IMG/VR virus record: IMGVR_UViG_3300026292_000623
Location: 8,214-72,213 of that record
DNA: 64,000 nt
Reading direction: 5' to 3' (one strand)
Source: a virus
Shown here piece after piece: positions 9,498 to 64,000 of the stretch; position 1 is the stretch's first letter, and every line of letters begins with the position of its first letter. A model generated the notes under the pieces. It worked only from the letters and a program-made list of their open reading frames with translations, was not told the origin of the DNA and ran no database searches. Both the position numbers and the translations under genes were made by a program.

Positions 9498-9505
9498 ATA
9501 ATATT

Positions 9506-9534
9506 ATAATAAGATATCTTACTTATTCTGTCAA
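9506..9534 (-). promoter_or_regulatory. Sigma70 early promoter with palindrome TAAGATATCTTA
   Basis: TTGACA-17-TATTAT; palindrome 9510-9521. Confidence 0.85.
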
Positions 9535-9538
9535 CCTT

Positions 9539-9706
9539 TTATTTTTGTGTTACTGTAGGTAGTGACCAAATCATCATTGCAATTCCAAAAATTGCAAATC
9601 CAAAAAATCCAGTCCAATTATCATTCATTGGGATTCCATTGTATCCACCGTCAATACAACCTACTGCTAAAATTAAACTAAAAAGTCCTAAAGTAAATCT
9701 AATCAT
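9539..9706 (-). CDS. Small membrane protein (55 aa, not in ORF track)
   Basis: MIRFTLGLFSLILAVGCIDGGYNG...WTGFFGFAIFGIAMMIWSLPTVTQK; GGAG RBS and own promoter. Confidence 0.75.
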   Translation of the reverse strand: MIRFTLGLFSLILAVGCIDGGYNGIPMNDNWTGFFGFAIFGIAMMIWSLPTVTQK

Positions 9707-9742
9707 ATTTTTTATATCTCCTTTGTTTCTAACTATACTATT

Positions 9743-9771
9743 ATAATACAGTAAGACGTCTTGATTGTCAA
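9743..9771 (-). promoter_or_regulatory. Sigma70 early promoter with palindrome AAGACGTCTT
   Basis: TTGACA-17-TATTAT; palindrome 9753-9762. Confidence 0.85.
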
Positions 9772-9796
9772 CCTTTTATGCAAAAAAAGATCATAA

Positions 9797-9823
9797 AAAA
9801 ACCCTTGATTTACAAGGGTTTTT
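9797..9823. terminator. Inverted repeat, possible bidirectional terminator
   Basis: AAAAACCCTTG-attta-CAAGGGTTTTT downstream of 9848..11239. Confidence 0.65.
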
Positions 9824-9847
9824 AAATTAATTTAAATTATTTTTGTA

Positions 9848-11251: not shown

Positions 11252-11280
11252 ATTATAAGATATCTTGGCTAAAATGTCAA
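11252..11280 (-). promoter_or_regulatory. Consensus sigma70 promoter with palindrome AAGATATCTT
   Basis: TTGACA-17-TATAAT; palindrome 11257-11266. Confidence 0.88.
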
Positions 11281-23370: not shown

Positions 23371-24145
23371 TTGTAACCTCCTTGATTAATAGGGTTTCAT
23401 TTACCTTAACAACGTTCTTTATTATACTATGATTTAGGATATTTGTCAATGCTTTTACATCTTTAGGAAAACAAGATCCACTATATCCTAGTGTTCCTTG
23501 AGAGTTTGGCACTAGCATATGTGTCGATCCTATAGTAGGAAATTTTCCTAATACACTAGATAAAGTGCCATAGTTTACCTCAGGTTGTATTTTATCATAT
23601 AACTCATGAAACCAAGCCACTTTTGTAGCTAACCAGGCGTTATGAGTATATTTTATTATACTTGCTGTCTCTCTATTGGTAAATTCTGTTGGAATAGCAA
23701 CTGTATGAATTTCATTAAATAAGTCTGCCCACCAAACGGCATCATCATACATATTATCATGATGTCCAAATATCTGTATATGTTGGTTAGCAAAATCTTC
23801 TTTTGCACTTGCTTCACGTAAAAATTCTGGGTTGTATACTACGTTATTATCGTAGCCACTTAATAAGTCTGGTGTTACAGTACTCTTTAATAATATTCTT
23901 TCTCCGTGGTTGCATAACTTTAATACTTCTCTAATATGTTTATCGTCGCAACTTCCATCTTCTTTACTTGGTGTTGGTACACAAATAATTATACCATCTG
24001 CTTTAATTATAGCATCAATAGGATAATTTTCTGGATATAGTTTAGGATCAACTCTAGTTACTTCTACTCCGCCTTGCTCTAAAAAGTCAGCAACTGTTCC
24101 TCCTACAAACCCACAACCAAATACTGCTATCTTATATGTCTTCAA
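23351..24145 (-). CDS. UDP-glucose/GDP-mannose dehydrogenase family protein
   Basis: GCGFVG, ICVPTP, KSTV, NPEFL, KY..N, GSCFPKD. Confidence 0.92.
   Translation of the reverse strand: MKTYKIAVFGCGFVGGTVADFLEQGGVEVTRVDPKLYPENYPIDAIIKADGIIICVPTPSKEDGSCDDKHIREVLKLCNHGERILLKSTVTPDLLSGYDNNVVYNPEFLREASAKEDFANQHIQIFGHHDNMYDDAVWWADLFNEIHTVAIPTEFTNRETASIIKYTHNAWLATKVAWFHELYDKIQPEVNYGTLSSVLGKFPTIGSTHMLVPNSQGTLGYSGSCFPKDVKALTNILNHSIIKNVVKVNETLLIKEVTNGKSNN
23421..23449 (-). promoter_or_regulatory. Consensus sigma70 promoter inside 3' end of dehydrogenase gene
   Basis: TTGACA-17-TATAAT ~50 nt upstream of glycine-zipper gene. Confidence 0.75.
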
Positions 24146-34888: not shown

Positions 34889-35071
34889 TTAATAAGCCTC
34901 TGCTAATTGTGTTTCTAATCTTGTGATTTGCATTTTTAAATCAAGTTTTTTATACTTTAATTCTTTTAATACTTCTTCACTAGCATACTGATTATATAAC
35001 GTATTAATTTCTTTGTCAAGCATTCTGTGTTTTTTCTTTAATGTATTTAGATATGTTGCTTTATCAGCCAT
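34889..35071 (-). CDS. DUF465/YdcH-like coiled-coil protein
   Basis: L.KKH..LD.EI...LK.KKL.LK..I. Confidence 0.8.
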   Translation of the reverse strand: MADKATYLNTLKKKHRMLDKEINTLYNQYASEEVLKELKYKKLDLKMQITRLETQLAEAY

Positions 35072-44150: not shown

Positions 44151-44212
44151 TTATACTCTATTATATACAGTAGTGGTTGATTTGTCAAGCTATACTTAAC
44201 ATAAATATATTT

Positions 44213-51650: not shown

Positions 51651-53144
51651 TTAAACGAAGTCTATCTTCGCTTTATTAAAAAATAATCCCCAAATTGCGG
51701 CTATTATTGCTAGTGCAATAAATGTTGCCGGTACAGGGCTTAATAACATATCTTCCCAACCATAATTATAAGTCTGGAATTGTACATAACTTTTTTCAAC
51801 TCTCTCACTTAGAATAAATCCAATTAAGAAACTTACTCTAGAGAATTTGAAATACTTTAAAAATACACCAGCTAAACAACACATACCAAAAATGATATAG
51901 TCATCCATTAAACCTGTGTATTGTGTGCAAGACCATATCAGCGATGCTAATATTGGCCAAAAGTAAATTTGAAATGGAATGTTAGTAATATAAACTGCAT
52001 ATTTGATAAACGCATATGCAATAGGTAATATTATTAATAAACTCCATAAGTAACTGCTCAGCAATACGTCAAAGAAATGTTCGTCCATTAATACACTTGG
52101 TGTACCAAGTTCTAGACCAACATACATCAATAAACCCATTACAATAACTTCAAAAGGTGCACCCGGAATACCAAATAAGATTGTAGGAACATAACTGGTT
52201 GCTTTTTGTGCATTGTTTGCACCTTCACATCCAATAACGCCTCTTACATTTCCCTTTCCAATATTCTCACCTTTTTTACCAGCAACTGCTACTGTTTGAC
52301 TATAGGCAAACCAATCAGCGATGTTACCACCAATACCTGGAATTAATCCAATAAAGCCTCCAATGAAGCCTCCTCTTAATCCATCCCATTTGTATTTCCA
52401 ACTGTCTTTGATTCCTTGCCACAGTTGGCCTATGATAACGCCGTTTGTTAGACTGATTTTTTGTGCTCTCATTTTGTAGGCACTCAACAATTCTGGAAAT
52501 GCTAATACACCTGCCATAACAGGTATCATTTGAATTCCATCACCTAAATACTCCCAATCGAGCCAATTTAACGAGCCTTCTTCAAAGCTCGGTATAACTG
52601 TAATCCAACGTGTTGCCGCTGTCTCTGGATCCATTCCAACGTGTCCTAAAAGAATACCGCCTATTAAAGCAAATATTCCTCTAACCCAATACTTGCTTGA
52701 AATGAAAATAACACAGGTCATTGCAAAAATTAAGAATGCAAACATCTCTATACTACCAAAATATAACACAATCTGTGAATACCAGGGTAAGAATAAAAAT
52801 ACTAATACACCCCAAATTAATCCATTGACCCAACTTGTTGATATTGCCGCACTCAATGCTCTTGCGGCCTCGCCTCTACGACTCATTGGAAATCCATCAA
52901 TCATAGTAGCCGCGGCACCTCCAGCACCCGGTACGTTCATTACTACACCACAAAAACTGTCTCCTATACTAGAAGTTACAACTACTGCGGTTGTGAATAC
53001 TACTAGCATATATGGATCGTGGAACATATGCACGAATGCATAAACTGCAATCAGTCCGGTGGTTGCACCTGCAACTGGAATTAGTCCTACAAAGAATCCG
53101 TAAGCTACACCTAGTAGTAAACAAGCAAGGTAAGTCTCAAACAC
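51651..53144 (-). CDS. tctA: Tripartite tricarboxylate transporter permease
   Basis: GLIP, NVPG...AAT.IDGFPM, GLIPGIGG, EGANNA, FGIPG. Confidence 0.93.
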   Translation of the reverse strand: MFETYLACLLLGVAYGFFVGLIPVAGATTGLIAVYAFVHMFHDPYMLVVFTTAVVVTSSIGDSFCGVVMNVPGAGGAAATMIDGFPMSRRGEAARALSAAISTSWVNGLIWGVLVFLFLPWYSQIVLYFGSIEMFAFLIFAMTCVIFISSKYWVRGIFALIGGILLGHVGMDPETAATRWITVIPSFEEGSLNWLDWEYLGDGIQMIPVMAGVLAFPELLSAYKMRAQKISLTNGVIIGQLWQGIKDSWKYKWDGLRGGFIGGFIGLIPGIGGNIADWFAYSQTVAVAGKKGENIGKGNVRGVIGCEGANNAQKATSYVPTILFGIPGAPFEVIVMGLLMYVGLELGTPSVLMDEHFFDVLLSSYLWSLLIILPIAYAFIKYAVYITNIPFQIYFWPILASLIWSCTQYTGLMDDYIIFGMCCLAGVFLKYFKFSRVSFLIGFILSERVEKSYVQFQTYNYGWEDMLLSPVPATFIALAIIAAIWGLFFNKAKIDFV

Positions 53145-59866: not shown

Positions 59867-60499
59867 ATGAAAAAACTAATATTATGTGGTTGTAGTCTTG
59901 GTGAATCTTGGATGCCATACTTTGATGGTAAGAAAAGAGATAACGATTCAACTCCAGATCACAATTACCAATTAGGACATTGGAAAAAAGTAACAAGGTT
60001 TCAACAAGCAGGTGGTACTCAAGGGTTAATGTTGTATAGACTTCTTAATCATTTTCTTGTAAACGAAATCAAAGATACAACTATTATGGTTCAATTAACC
60101 GGCTATAAAAGATCAACTACTGTTAGTGATCAGATTACTAACTCTGATGTAACTTATCAAAACAATATAACAGATAACTATGAGTTTATTATATGTGACC
60201 AAAACAACCAATCATCAGGCGAGGCGGATACTGCGAGTTTAATCCAAGTTCTTTGTATGCTATCAAAACTTGGTGCTAATGTATACGTATTCAGAGGCTG
60301 GCCAGGAGTGTGTAAACCTAAAGAATGGGAAACAACATATACTATTCTCAATGATGCCGGTGTTATAACTACAGAATTAGATTACTTAACCCTGGCCCAC
60401 AACTCAAAAATAGATGATTGGATAGATGACAAACACCCAGGTGTAAGATTAGGTTGTATTGTATTTGATAACATATGGAAAGAACTAAATGCATACTAA
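59867..60499 (+). CDS. SGNH hydrolase-like protein
   Basis: N-terminal GCS, VQLT...R, C-terminal DDKHPG (DxxH). Confidence 0.6.
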   Translation: MKKLILCGCSLGESWMPYFDGKKRDNDSTPDHNYQLGHWKKVTRFQQAGGTQGLMLYRLLNHFLVNEIKDTTIMVQLTGYKRSTTVSDQITNSDVTYQNNITDNYEFIICDQNNQSSGEADTASLIQVLCMLSKLGANVYVFRGWPGVCKPKEWETTYTILNDAGVITTELDYLTLAHNSKIDDWIDDKHPGVRLGCIVFDNIWKELNAY

Positions 60500-61145
60500 T
60501 AACTTAGAATTAGAGTTAACAACAATATGTACTTTAGGCTGTCCTGCCTGCCCTCGTAATTACCAAAAACATTTAAAAAAAGAATGGAATTTGGGAAATA
60601 TGCCACTAGACAAAGTTAAATGGATTGCTGACAATACAAGTTTTAATCAATATTTGTTTGTTGGCTGTTATGGTGATCCTATATACCATCCTGATATAGT
60701 AGAGATACTAGACTATTACAACGGCAAAGGTAAAAATGTATTCTTGGAAACAAATGCCAGCAATACTAAACCAGAATTGTGGAATAGAATAGCTGAATTA
60801 AATTTAAGTAATACCCATTGGACTTTTAGTGTAGATGGACTAGAAGATACAAATAGCATTTATCGTATTCGTAGTAATTGGAAACATATAACCTATGCTA
60901 TGAAAACTCTATTGAGTATGCCCAAAGAACGTAAACCACAAACATTGTGGAAGTGGATTGAATTCCCTTACAATCAACATCAAACAGACAAAGCCAGAGA
61001 ACTAGCTAAAGAATTGGGATTTGATAAATTCGAAGCTCGTAGAAGCACACGTTGGATTCCATATTCTAGAACAACTACAAACATAGAACAATATCTATTC
61101 CCCAAAGAATTACAACTATGGAAAGAGAGAAACGCCAAACTATGA
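60489..61145 (+). CDS. Radical SAM core domain (no SPASM domain)
   Basis: CTLGCPAC, GCYGDP, ETN, FSVDG, YNQHQ. Confidence 0.9.
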   Translation: MHTNNLELELTTICTLGCPACPRNYQKHLKKEWNLGNMPLDKVKWIADNTSFNQYLFVGCYGDPIYHPDIVEILDYYNGKGKNVFLETNASNTKPELWNRIAELNLSNTHWTFSVDGLEDTNSIYRIRSNWKHITYAMKTLLSMPKERKPQTLWKWIEFPYNQHQTDKARELAKELGFDKFEARRSTRWIPYSRTTTNIEQYLFPKELQLWKERNAKL

Positions 61146-61453
61146 GCAAAATATATCCTAGATGTTTAGTTCACGAAGGTGATCCTCTGTTTGTTGGTCC
61201 AGATGGATATCTAAAACCTTGTTGTTTTGTAAACAATGCTAGAGACTGGAATGAATTCCTAGTGTGGGTTAAGGATAACAATTTAGATATAGAAGACCTA
61301 AATCTGTTTAATCAGGGATTAGATAAAATAAAAGAGAGTCCTACTTGGAAACTATTAAAAAAGCAATTAGAATCCCAAGATCCTAATTGCCCTGATGTTT
61401 GTAAAAGAATGTGTGATCACCCTACCGAGCGAAACCTACATCGTAAAGTTTAA
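61142..61453 (+). CDS. Stand-alone SPASM/twitch domain protein
   Basis: YPRC...PDGYLKPCC...CKRMC; ATGA overlap at 61142. Confidence 0.85.
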   Translation: MSKIYPRCLVHEGDPLFVGPDGYLKPCCFVNNARDWNEFLVWVKDNNLDIEDLNLFNQGLDKIKESPTWKLLKKQLESQDPNCPDVCKRMCDHPTERNLHRKV

Positions 61454-61899
61454 GCTAAACGTTTACCTAACTCGTTAGCAACTGCTGATGCCATTGCTTG
61501 TTTATTTGTTACTACCTTAGCACCAACGGGCCATATAATAAACTTTGCAAGACGTAAATAAACAACTGCAAATGGAATACCAATTACTGTAATAGCTAAC
61601 ACACCTGCCATTATTACATTAAATATTGCAATAGCAATTCCAAATGGTAGGAATAAAATATTAGCAAGTAGTCCACCAAACTTTCGTAGACCTCCTACAC
61701 TATTCTTTCCGTTTAATTCAGTTTCACGTATAATTTCTTTTCCATAAGGAAATGCACCAAGACTTGCTAAATTAAATAGAACCTTAGCAATAGGCCATCC
61801 AATAATAGTTACTGCCATACAAGCTGATGCAACTAGTAATACTAGAGCATTCAACCATCCGCATAGCACAAACCAAAACATATTAAAAAGTGATATCAT
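61450..61899 (-). CDS. yccF: YccF-domain inner membrane protein
   Basis: N..WF...GW, TIIGWP, PYG; second repeat ITVIGIPFA...WPVG. Confidence 0.88.
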   Translation of the reverse strand: MISLFNMFWFVLCGWLNALVLLVASACMAVTIIGWPIAKVLFNLASLGAFPYGKEIIRETELNGKNSVGGLRKFGGLLANILFLPFGIAIAIFNVIMAGVLAITVIGIPFAVVYLRLAKFIIWPVGAKVVTNKQAMASAVANELGKRLA

Positions 61900-61927
61900 T
61901 TTTCTTCTCCTGTGTTTAAATGATGAA

Positions 61928-62275
61928 TTAGTCTAAACGATCGCCTGCATAAGCAGTGAACCCATATTGTTTGAATACTTCAGCACAAGCTTCAGCACCT
62001 GCACTTTTAACTTCAACGTTTTGCACGTTTAAATTACCTGGATTCCAAATCTTATAGCTACCACTATAATCTTTCTCAATACCTGCGGCCTTCATTGCAC
62101 GACCCATTTTAGTATTGCCTTTTATTCCGTAGATGTTAACCCAAGCAAATCCACAAGGAAAGTTATCTTCACCACCTAGTCGCTCGTCTAAATACTTCTG
62201 ACTAGCATTTTGGGCTGAGATTTTAGCCTGTGTTAATATTGTTTTGATTTCTTCTACAGTATATTGCTTTTGCAT
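61928..62275 (-). CDS. Conserved hypothetical early phage protein
   Basis: CGFAWV...Q...K.AGA.A.A.V...G...RLD; AGGAG RBS. Confidence 0.8.
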   Translation of the reverse strand: MQKQYTVEEIKTILTQAKISAQNASQKYLDERLGGEDNFPCGFAWVNIYGIKGNTKMGRAMKAAGIEKDYSGSYKIWNPGNLNVQNVEVKSAGAEACAEVFKQYGFTAYAGDRLD

Positions 62276-62303
62276 AATCGCTCCTTTTATTTAATATACA
62301 ACT

Positions 62304-62332
62304 ATAATACAGTAAGACTTCTTACTTGTCAA
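62304..62332 (-). promoter_or_regulatory. Sigma70 early promoter with inverted repeat AGTAAGA-CT-TCTTACT
   Basis: TTGACA-17-TATTAT; IR 62311-62326. Confidence 0.85.
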
Positions 62333-62600
62333 CCTCTATTCCTAGATAGTCTTTCTTTAATATATCCAACTGTTCTATGCTATTTGGATACCTATCTAGT
62401 AGATCTTCAGCATCTAATACCGATTGTTCTACGTCCTCAAAGCGAATAGGGAATACATTCTTAACAACTGTAAATGGATCTCCAACCTTAAAGATCTGTG
62501 CCTCAATTCCTAATGTAAGAGCATACTTTTCTGCTAATGCTACTGTTGGGAATTGCTTTCCGAATATAGTTCCGGTTTGACTTGTGAATACATCATACAT
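62322..62600 (-). CDS. Hypothetical early protein
   Basis: TAATG coupling. Confidence 0.65.
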   Translation of the reverse strand: MYDVFTSQTGTIFGKQFPTVALAEKYALTLGIEAQIFKVGDPFTVVKNVFPIRFEDVEQSVLDAEDLLDRYPNSIEQLDILKKDYLGIEVDK

Positions 62601-62959
62601 TATATCTTAATTCCTTGCTCTCTGGCGGCATTTTGCATAATAGGGGTTAGTACTTCTTCTACACGATCTTCCCAATGAGCCCAAACTAGGTTTGTAGCAT
62701 AATAGGTATCTCGCATAGTAGGAGCGAAACCATAGATATCTTTAAACAATCCTCGCTTGTTACAAAGACCATTATTAAACAGATCATAAGCGGCATTTTG
62801 TGCTCTACGAAAACGATCTAAATGTTTGTTCTTTGAATTGGGATTCTCACAACGACCTTCTGCTGGAAGTAGATCGTTTAATGTATTATTAAGAACACTA
62901 AAACCTTGATTACAACCCCAAGTATTCTTAAACAATTTTTCTTGATATCCTTTGTACAT
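62600..62959 (-). CDS. Hypothetical early phage protein
   Basis: FRRAQNAAYDLFNNGLCN; AGGAG RBS. Confidence 0.75.
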   Translation of the reverse strand: MYKGYQEKLFKNTWGCNQGFSVLNNTLNDLLPAEGRCENPNSKNKHLDRFRRAQNAAYDLFNNGLCNKRGLFKDIYGFAPTMRDTYYATNLVWAHWEDRVEEVLTPIMQNAAREQGIKI

Positions 62960-62990
62960 ATAAGTACTCCTCTTTTCTAACTATACTACT

Positions 62991-63019
62991 ATAGTAAGAC
63001 ATCTTGCTAGTATTGTCAA
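62991..63019 (-). promoter_or_regulatory. Sigma70 early promoter with AAGACATCTT
   Basis: TTGACA-17-TACTAT; quasi-palindrome 62996-63005. Confidence 0.82.
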
Positions 63020-63053
63020 CCTTTTTATGCTATTTTTCTTATCTTTTTTGACA

Positions 63054-63347
63054 TTATTTTAGTCTAAAGAAAGCCTGTATATCAACCTTGGTTAAACCAT
63101 AAACATCTGATCCAGGTTCCATTACATCTATAATCTCCCCTTCATAATCACTGGATTCTAATTGTGCTATTGCGTCTGATTTGCTAATAGCTTTTATATA
63201 ATGTACCTCAAACATCTTGTGATTACCACGGCTATTCTCGGGTCTAACACGTATCATATAGTTTTGTTTAAGTGTATTCAGCTTCATATAACGTCCTTTT
63301 CTTATTGTAATACTGTGTATTATACACGAATTCCTTACCAAGATCAA
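63054..63347 (-). CDS. Hypothetical protein (probable start 63287, MKLNT)
   Basis: AAGGA RBS; TTGATC-17-TATAAT at 63347-63319. Confidence 0.65.
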   Translation of the reverse strand: MILVRNSCIIHSITIRKGRYMKLNTLKQNYMIRVRPENSRGNHKMFEVHYIKAISKSDAIAQLESSDYEGEIIDVMEPGSDVYGLTKVDIQAFFRLK

Positions 63348-63394
63348 GCATTATACCCTGGTTTATAATAGGGATTAATTGGTAATAATAATGG

Positions 63395-63423
63395 TTGACA
63401 AATAACCAAACCCCTTATATATT
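63395..63423 (+). promoter_or_regulatory. Sigma70-type promoter pointing into non-coding region
   Basis: GGTTGACA-17 nt-TATATT. Confidence 0.75.
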
Positions 63424-63429
63424 AGCTAA

Positions 63430-63760
63430 CTAGGCGGTAATAAAGGGCTTTAGCAAAACCCGTACCTTATTCGTAAGTAAGCAACCACCGATCCTAGATA
63501 TATTTTAGCACCTGGATTATATAGCAGGCCAGGAAAACCTAATTAGCTATTATTAGGGTAACCCATAATAGTTCGTAACAATACGTGTCAGCTTACAACC
63601 GTATGTAGTGCAGAGAAGTTACCTCGGACCTATACGTCATTACTGTTAATAGTGACCAAAGGAGCACTTTGTTATTAACAGTAGTGTTTAGGGTTTTCAA
63701 CACTCAGATGGCGGGTTTATCAACCCTCCTAGATCATCTGCGAAGCACGGCTCGCAAAAT
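63430..63760 (+). ncRNA. Candidate large structured non-coding RNA, family unrecognised
   Basis: No listed ORF; about nine nested helices, including a 15-bp stem with G-U pairs, a UUCG tetraloop and a long-range closing helix. Confidence 0.7.
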
Positions 63761-63835
63761 TTTTCAACACTATTAATAACTGCGTATATAACAGTTCTTT
63801 ACCAATATCTCACTCAATACACCATAAATAATAAT

Positions 63836-64000
63836 ATGAAAGTATACTCCGTAAGTTATAACGCAGGAACTGGTGGAACGTGGCTAACCTGGTTTATAAA
63901 TCAACATAGTGGCTTTCAAAATTATCCCATAGAATTTAATGAACAAGCTCTAGATTATACTGTAGGTGATGACTTAATGTGGCATTATGATAAAGAGTCT
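63836..64000 (+). CDS. Partial ORF, paralog of 24146..24907
   Basis: MKVYSVSYNAGTGGTWLTWFINQHSGF...; runs off window end; ATAAATA 5 nt upstream. Confidence 0.75.
   Translation, partial: MKVYSVSYNAGTGGTWLTWFINQHSGFQNYPIEFNEQALDYTVGDDLMWHYDKES

Follow-up and report, generated by a model that had tools for sequence, protein, structure and literature searches.

A conserved, promoter-driven candidate noncoding RNA in a divergent intergenic region of an uncultured marine giant phage

Very few giant marine phages have been cultured, and the noncoding RNAs that they encode are little charted. Here we analyse a 64,000-nt stretch of viral DNA, hereafter the window (bases 8214-72213 of the 72,213-base linear IMG/VR record IMGVR_UViG_3300026292_000623, a record estimated to be 21% complete), in which a structured candidate noncoding RNA (ncRNA) of about 336 nt is predicted at 63429-63764. 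Among described systems, a conserved small RNA (sRNA) is reported for the Pseudomonas phage 201phi2-1 (PMC11512511). Such giant-phage sRNAs resemble the RNA of the window in that they are noncoding, have their own transcription signals, are found in intergenic space and have no assigned function. Those phages, however, rely on polymerases and promoter motifs of their own; the promoters here are of the host type (TTGACA/TATAAT). The RNA of the window is also long for an sRNA, and it is likened to the one of 201phi2-1 by description, not by sequence.

Other known RNAs compare as follows. Like the RNA of the window, manA (RF01745) and wcaG (RF01761) are structured RNAs of marine phages placed upstream of sugar- or polysaccharide-type accessory genes (PMC2864571). 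However, neither model matches here, and the RNA of the window has an independent-looking terminator and no competing antiterminator. Both motifs are also much shorter than 336 nt. A likeness to 6S RNA would lie in an abundant, stable, protein-binding transcript running from promoter to terminator, but 6S is a long rod with a central bubble, whereas the RNA here is modular, with multi-domain predicted folds; no 6S model matched at E-values up to 10, and this candidate was rejected. The phi29 pRNA, GOLLD and ROOL, structured RNAs that phages also carry, function or are believed to function in RNA-protein or multimeric RNA assemblies and not through base-pairing. They differ from the present RNA in size, architecture and gene context, and no Rfam family was found here at threshold. 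Finally, lambda nut and HK022 put are short elements (tens of bases) of lambdoid phages. Their layout of early promoter, structured RNA, terminator and later genes is like that of the window, but no partner protein and no kept box motifs were identified here.

The locus sits in a divergent intergenic region, with a 77-amino-acid (aa) gene on the minus strand to its left and a sulfotransferase-like gene on the plus strand to its right. Its transcription unit is composed of the following features:

63395-63423, plus strand: sigma-70-type promoter TTGACA-17-TATATT, 11 of 12 consensus positions matched
63429-63764, plus strand: predicted transcript of about 336 nt, its ends placed from promoter and terminator
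63739-63764, plus strand: terminator-like hairpin followed by a T run, found by terminator scan

The promoter is present at the exact site where an earlier note, made from the letters of the window alone, had put it, and it is invariant in all five loci covering that site (the relatives are described below). The terminator hairpin is unchanged in six of six loci. The same note had proposed a promoter-driven RNA of about 330 nt. No protein-coding signature was observed: the longest open reading frames (ORFs) within 63425-63800 are 35 and 36 aa long. Its description of the locus as the only long ORF-free stretch holds in practice, since the sole other stretch of at least 250 bases in the window without an ORF of at least 60 aa (9498-9847) contains a 55-aa gene. 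The G+C content of the 336-nt stretch is 40.8%, versus a mean of 33.9% for the window, which places it in the top 2.7% of all 336-nt segments; the intergenic DNA on either side of the predicted transcript has a G+C content of 27-30%. The elevated G+C is a second signal, independent of folding.

We read this element, tentatively and as somewhat short of probable, as an early ncRNA that stands alone, acts in trans and belongs to a new family of narrow distribution. The locus has the attributes of a stand-alone ncRNA gene, namely its own promoter and terminator, no coding frame, conservation at the nucleotide level and base changes that preserve pairing, with transcript ends placed from sequence signals.

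The element was found in five other loci, one on an IMG/VR contig (IMGVR_UViG_3300046468_000948) and four on metagenome contigs, one of which spans just the 3' half of the element. Gene order was identical in all loci with the element. Identity to four homologues, counted per 40-base bin, was 88-100% across 63414-63733, and the bins 63574-63613 (0 variable columns in five sequences) and 63654-63693 were fully invariant. Flanking coding bins were 58-95% identical and the spacer after the terminator 35-40%. Among the differences listed for contigs of four runs, none fell at 63573-63626.

The phage GenBank collection gave no match to the element by blastn or megablast. IMG/VR was searched with the proteins of both flanks, with two protein alignments and with three RNA patterns, and only IMGVR_UViG_3300046468_000948 was found to have the element; these searches also gave seven distant relatives of the 205-aa sulfotransferase-like gene, without the RNA. 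An 18-mer search of the JGI metagenomes returned eight loci, of which four were true and four were chance matches as judged by blastn. Nothing was found in prokaryote genomes by protein and 18-mer searches, nor did nhmmer match any of 29 IMG/VR loci (L022-L050) encoding relatives (50-71% identity) of a nearby 115-aa protein. The element is real, and its family is undescribed and, by these searches, narrow in distribution.

Parts of the locus occur in 20 runs, six of them recorded as RNA. Of these six, three libraries from three studies were analysed, and each yielded one contig, 220-259 bases long, at 63471-63729, 63450-63638 and 63450-63684; the loose ends of the second were read as a variant of the type of one of the relatives (L003). 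RNA libraries can hold DNA, and such contigs show presence, not strand, ends or level. No RNA-library contig was found on the flanks 63000-63441 and 63730-64000, an absence that was not counted, because uncovered parts are no evidence and the flanks of the variant strain are too diverged. The element is probably transcribed.

Folding of the whole RNA gave -85.2 kcal/mol on the plus strand, versus -76.2 +/- 4.4 for shuffled sequences (z -2.02; 3 of 100 shuffles equal it), and a z of -1.59 on the minus strand. Segment z-scores were -0.67 for the 5' junction, -1.02 for 63505-63575, +0.48 for 63568-63637 and -1.89 for the 3' part. For the segment of the long hairpin (63636-63688) the z-score was -5.69, with none of 200 shuffles as good, and the L003 version scored -4.35. 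The comparison with shuffles, which the earlier note had suggested as a check, is therefore clear for this hairpin and marginal for the RNA as a whole, so that the fold described as running almost end to end was overstated: the hairpin at 63638-63686 is the only exceptional part (z -5.7). All 13 helix segments named in that note are complementary in the window, a few coordinates being one base off. The RNA is predicted to be modular rather than one compact fold, with these parts:

63430-63497, plus strand: 5' three-way junction of two hairpins closed by the helix 63430-38/63487-97
63445-63461, plus strand: hairpin H1, GGGCUUU-AGCA-AAAACCC, the best supported helix, with two both-sides pair changes
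63466-63481, plus strand: second junction hairpin, invariant, CUUA-UUCG-UAAG versus the preferred CUUAUU-CGUA-AGUAAG
63511-63533, plus strand: hairpin CCUGG/CCAGG with a 13-nt loop, stem invariant
63538-63571, plus strand: hairpin S1, CCUAA 63538-42/UUAGG 63553-57, and possible S2, CUAUUA 63547-52/UAAUAG 63566-71
63572-63637, plus strand: central segment, nearly invariant and weakly structured (folding z +0.48)
63638-63686, plus strand: long hairpin, 15 + 5 bp, its apical region carrying AAGGAG (z -5.69)
63713-63726, plus strand: hairpin GGGUU-UAUC-AACCC, stem invariant, loop varying C/U, pair probability 0.76-0.93
63727-63738, plus strand: variable linker with the second TCCTAGAT, five versions among six loci

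The 5' junction is the minimum-energy fold of its segment in both the window and L003. Its closing helix is invariant, with a pair probability of 0.64-0.79 in four of five homologues and of 0.03 in the remaining one (L017). Energy favours the register CUUAUU-CGUA-AGUAAG for the second junction hairpin, the register CUUA-UUCG-UAAG having a probability of 0.02; base changes do not discriminate between the two, as the hairpin is invariant. Pair probability of S1 was 0.63-0.84 in four of five homologues, and that of S2 was 0.94 in the window sequence only. S1 and S2 could possibly form an H-type pseudoknot, the third loop of which would be the variable loop 63558-65, where positions 63562-65 differ in sequence and length among loci. 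Eight of the 20 variable unpaired columns are at 63729-63737, inside the linker.

The long-range architecture proposed in the earlier note is favoured only in the window sequence and is not conserved. Its long-range helix AAAACCUAA/UUAGGGUUUU (in RNA, GAAAACCUAA/UUAGGGUUUUC), thought to close three hairpins, had a pair probability of 0.00 in four of five homologues, and a both-sides change in S1 (see below) backs the competing local hairpin CCUAA/UUAGG. The hairpin CUAUUAU/AUAAUAG (CTATTAT/ATAATAG) is likewise favoured by the window sequence only, with a probability of at most 0.08 in four of five homologues, and the middle pair of its GGG/CCC tip is unpaired in four of five. CAGAUG/CAUCUG (CAGATG/CATCTG) is complementary in the window, but its outer pair is unpaired in three of five. 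TCCTAGAT does occur twice, at 63492 and 63727; the second copy is altered in all five other loci, so that the alternative partner suggested for the 5' CUAGG is not conserved. What stands of the early phage ncRNA put forward in that note, as a conjectural scaffold, decoy or ribozyme, is a conserved, noncoding promoter-to-terminator unit present on RNA-library contigs, without its end-to-end architecture.

Base changes were inspected relative to pairing. In H1, two pairs are changed on both sides between the window and four other loci, G-C to A-U and U-A to C-G. A third both-sides change was found in contig 6 of the DNA run X2, where T63540>A together with A63555>T preserves an S1 pair (CCUAA/UUAGG). 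This X2 variant contig has four substitutions and one deletion in the CCUGG/CCAGG hairpin, all within the loop, and its remaining differences are in loops and linkers. It also shows A63458>G and C63460>T, with partners unchanged among the listed differences; tentatively, these would give G-U intermediates in H1. The long hairpin shows U-G to C-G, A-U to G-U and the loss of one bulged base, all on the 5' strand.

Within a curated set of 66 pairs, every cell (100%) pairs and two changes are both-sided. The covariation score is equalled or exceeded in 15 of 500 shuffles; when partners were slid by 1-3 columns as a control, 29-46% paired. The structure of the earlier note is 97.4% paired and has no both-sides change. 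All seven variable paired columns (7/7) retain pairing. With about two lineages, the pairing evidence is suggestive and not proof.

The one-sided stem changes (U-G/C-G and A-U/G-U) pair on the plus strand, whereas on the minus strand they are A-C mismatches. Together with two G-U pairs of the long hairpin in the window sequence, they bear out the earlier observation that stem imperfections are G-U on the plus strand. This polarity bears on a DNA-level explanation, which we consider very improbable: the locus would serve as an origin or as a control region bound by proteins, or would be a cassette exchanged recently, with hairpins acting in DNA or as a minus-strand terminator. Its conservation would then come from recent recombination and not from RNA function, a proposition of equally small likelihood. 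Such an element would fit a location where transcription diverges, the patchy conservation nearby, with cassettes at 61462-61927 and 62617-62973 present or absent among relatives, and the finding that H1, read as its complement, is scored as a terminator of the minus strand. However, A-C mismatches would result in duplex DNA or on the opposite strand, no repeats or iterons were found, and no minus-strand promoter was found to the right of the locus. Moreover, RNA-library contigs map on the locus, and the adjoining AT-rich spacer is the least conserved part.

Known RNA families were searched with Rfam 15 (4227 models), and no family reached its gathering score in the whole window; the scan suggested in the earlier note thus returned no known family. 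A sensitive scan of 63250-63900 gave only mir-8250 (17.7 bits versus 80, E 1.8) and PK-PYVV (16.5 versus 65, E 3), both of them chance-level and on the promoter region rather than on the RNA. No Rfam cis-regulatory family matched. Candidates of tRNA and tmRNA type were rejected, as ARAGORN found 0 genes in the window and 0 in 63380-63800 at default and 80% thresholds, with junk at 60%. RNase P RNA was rejected as well: no model matched at E-values up to 10, and the long-range helix has a probability of 0.00 in four of five homologues. ARAGORN and Rfam scans therefore agree with the earlier note, which had seen no resemblance to tRNA, tmRNA or RNase P. The element was not found among the listed papers on structured or noncoding RNAs of marine giant phages. 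Most likely, the locus makes a noncoding RNA of no known family.

One of the short ORFs deserves separate consideration:

63669-63776, plus strand: 35-aa ORF starting with TTG and running through the terminator, open in six of six loci, no frame-shifting gap

If translated, it would make the transcript a small-protein messenger with a structured 5' untranslated region of 240 nt; either a peptide would be made, in the manner of a type I toxin, or its translation across the terminator hairpin would set read-through. We regard this as quite improbable. The ORF always crosses the terminator hairpin and T run, AAGGAG lies 4 bases 5' of the TTG, and the start codon is locked within a very stable hairpin. 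In tightly repressed toxin messages, too, the start codon is locked in a stable structure. The open frame is a weak indication, as the sequences are about 90% identical, and purifying selection on the 35-aa peptide was not detected: six of the six variable codons (of 32) alter the amino acid, some radically (D/N/L/H, L/S), and no synonymous change is present in the first 13 codons. Between the window and L003, one codon change is synonymous-only and four alter the amino acid. In contrast, many synonymous changes were seen in four real neighbouring genes compared between the window and L004, which is on the same contig as L003 (synonymous-only to amino-acid changes 12:14, 15:13, 10:1 and 12:3).

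A TTG with 4-base spacing is also poor as a start, no hydrophobic run in the peptide is of membrane length, and the upstream 240 nt are equally conserved without an ORF. In a collection of 5.8 billion protein clusters, the 60-aa ORF of L004 that contains the 35-aa ORF had a single match, the front part of which is unrelated, versus 27 clusters for a neighbouring gene. Homologues are separated by 1-nt insertions or deletions at 63565 and 63640, and therefore no long frame exists in any genetic code. The 336-nt stretch is thus without a protein-coding signature.

The genes on either side of the element are as follows:

63054-63287, minus strand: divergent 77-aa gene, from the ORF list, with its ATG start from an alignment with 13 homologues
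63319-63347, minus strand: promoter-like site of the 77-aa gene, TTGATC-17-TATAAT, 10 of 12 positions
63836-64000, plus strand: start of the 205-aa gene, cut by the window end (6032-6649 in L004), from the ORF list and relatives

The structure model of the 205-aa protein (pLDDT 85) is of a P-loop, sulfotransferase-like type. Its best PDB matches are sulfotransferases (E about 0.01, TM about 0.45), and a protein atlas places it with sulfotransferases at scores of 0.91-0.92; no Pfam family was found for it. A sulfotransferase-like fold is a lead for this product, not proof. The ATG (63836) lies 71 bases 3' of the terminator-like site, on the same strand. In the spacer between them, GTATATAAC at 63784-63792 is kept in four of six loci and has a near form in two of six. 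It is not recurrent in the window (1 site versus 1.1 expected), and this box could be a start signal of the 205-aa gene.

The terminator may leak, because the energy of its hairpin is just -6.1 kcal/mol and 3-4 A separate stem and T run. No sigma-70-type promoter was found by promoter scan between it and the 205-aa gene. Both observations would suit a cis-acting leader, the main rival explanation, absent from the earlier note, which we find possible but rather unlikely. In it, the early promoter would serve the downstream plus-strand genes, the sulfotransferase-like gene first, and the structured RNA with its terminator would be an attenuator or antitermination site of riboswitch, nut or put type that sets the extent of read-through. 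The short RNA would then be a terminated by-product, which we hold to be unlikely to the same degree. As in a riboswitch or attenuator, the element precedes a same-strand gene and has an intrinsic terminator at its 3' end, and it lies directly upstream of the 205-aa gene in every locus reaching that far. Glycosyltransferase, carbamoyltransferase and radical SAM genes abound in the window, and marine phages carry riboswitch-like leaders (manA, wcaG) before sugar or exopolysaccharide genes (PMC2864571).

However, no pairing competes with the terminator beyond chance: the exclusive antiterminator pairing of an attenuator was not found, the best duplex having -9.1 kcal/mol versus -10.9 +/- 2.1 for 300 shuffles, 82% of which are as good or better. 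An element of this kind would also be long at 336 nt. Conservation is lowest in the spacer that follows the terminator, which varies in length, except for the kept GTATATAAC box, and distant homologues of the 205-aa protein (27-29% identity, seven loci) have neither an upstream gap nor the RNA. The failure of any Rfam cis-regulatory family to match also argues against a leader.

Several points weigh against a stand-alone, trans-acting ncRNA of a new family. The weak terminator and the lack of a good sigma-70 promoter for the same-strand gene 71 bases on fit a leader equally. Two genes at 61928-62616 are also 94.8% identical to their relatives, and the conservation of the element may partly stem from a segment shared recently. 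All homologues share about 90% identity and represent roughly two lineages, in which the both-sides changes could come down to only two or three events. The share of variable columns is lower among paired (7/132) than among unpaired (20/205) positions, but not significantly so (Fisher p 0.16). As a whole the RNA folds only weakly above chance; the long hairpin alone is exceptional, and the other four of the five segments do not surpass shuffled sequence. No blast match was found in four large related phage records, nor a match with either of two covariance models, and the same two models found nothing in 36 related loci; these models are shorter than full length and were built from near-identical sequences, which gives them little reach and makes the blanks weak. 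No paralogue was found in the window or in the wider 72-kb record. The contigs from RNA libraries cannot show the ends and strand of a transcript.

A further point against it is that antisense matches within the 72-kb record reach at most 11 bases, with E 4.5 or worse. The same figure counts against another, improbable explanation, a trans-acting antisense regulator whose invariant unpaired centre would be a seed against host messages, or against phage messages in the other 79% of the genome. A 60-nt invariant segment without folding signal (z +0.48) and an sRNA-like, terminator-ended 3' end would suit such a regulator, and giant phages are reported to encode small RNAs (PMC11512511). However, 336 nt and several kept helices far exceed what a seed needs.

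If the element is a stand-alone, trans-acting ncRNA, the host RNA polymerase would transcribe an RNA of about 336 nt from the near-consensus early promoter and would mostly stop at the hairpin and T run. The transcript would begin with the 5' three-way junction, followed by two small hairpins, the second possibly a pseudoknot, and by the near-invariant, weakly paired centre. Further 3', the very stable 20-bp hairpin, the short 3' hairpin, the variable linker and the terminator would follow. This stable RNA would act in trans with its helices as a frame. The invariant unpaired 63572-63637, the loop of the long hairpin with its 3' strand, and 63687-63712 would present a partner-binding surface early in infection, and we would guess the partner to be a host or phage protein.

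A more specific proposal is a new class of large phage ncRNA active in host takeover, which would bind the host transcription or translation machinery via its invariant unpaired core; we rate its chances as very low. Equally doubtful is its extension, namely co-production with the divergent 77-aa protein and a 6S-like role without 6S architecture. The 77-aa gene is at the same position in homologous loci. Its protein has no Pfam family, and its model (pLDDT 76) shows a beta-beta-alpha-beta-alpha order. A fold search gave no significant match for it (best E 0.06). It is faintly and non-significantly like RNA polymerase epsilon (YkzG/RpoY) and T7 Gp2 (Foldseek E 0.06-0.3; RpoY at 0.80 in the protein atlas), a faint resemblance that may be taken as a lead only.

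The source of the window is an uncultured marine giant phage. Runs containing the locus are labelled marine or seawater, and the genome is estimated at about 330 kb, because both genes flanking the RNA locus have close copies on a metagenome contig of 329,779 bases. More distant relatives of the two flanking proteins (59-73% and 70-82% identity) are encoded on contigs that come mostly from ENA assemblies. TTGACA-N16-18-TATAWT occurs five times in the window versus 0.27 expected, and none of 100 shuffles reaches five. These near-perfect host-type promoters are located at 11252-11280, 23421-23449, 34991-35019 and 44160-44188 (all on the minus strand) and at 63395-63423 (plus strand); TTGACAAA starts four of the five. 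From these sequences, the giant phage therefore seems to be reliant on host-type TTGACA/TATAAT promoters and on the host sigma-70 polymerase for those five units. The regions upstream of ORFs (n=85) have ordinary AAGGAG-type sites, with AGGAG in 13/85, GGAGCA in 0/85 and no extended shared motif.

Accessory genes crowd the window: radical SAM/SPASM enzymes, glycosyltransferases, carbamoyltransferases, a TctA transporter and a YccF-like membrane protein. The TctA tricarboxylate transporter subunit (51651-53144, minus strand, Pfam E 6.7e-81) is full-length and an unusual phage cargo. A radical SAM core (218 aa, 60489-61145) and a SPASM domain (111 aa, 61118-61453) are encoded by two overlapping ORFs, likewise in L004, and represent either a split enzyme or a programmed shift. 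The segments 61462-61927 and 62617-62973, encoding the YccF-like membrane protein and a 119-aa protein, are missing from the otherwise collinear L004 and L015, and L017 retains the second of these small genes (62617-62973). This pattern points to a cassette-like gain or loss beside the RNA locus. The gap at 9498-9847 holds a 55-aa membrane-like ORF (9539-9706, minus strand) with its own AAGGAG site, TTGACA-type promoter and hairpin terminator, as judged by eye.

Conserved, promoter-driven, outside the curated families and present on contigs of seawater RNA libraries, the RNA of 336 nt is a tangible candidate, not an established case, of a new RNA family. No phage is needed to produce it and to probe it in the laboratory. 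If it were a leader, phage sugar-modification genes would have in it a control element of unusual size. If it truly bound a host factor, it would be an RNA-based takeover device beside the known protein-based ones.

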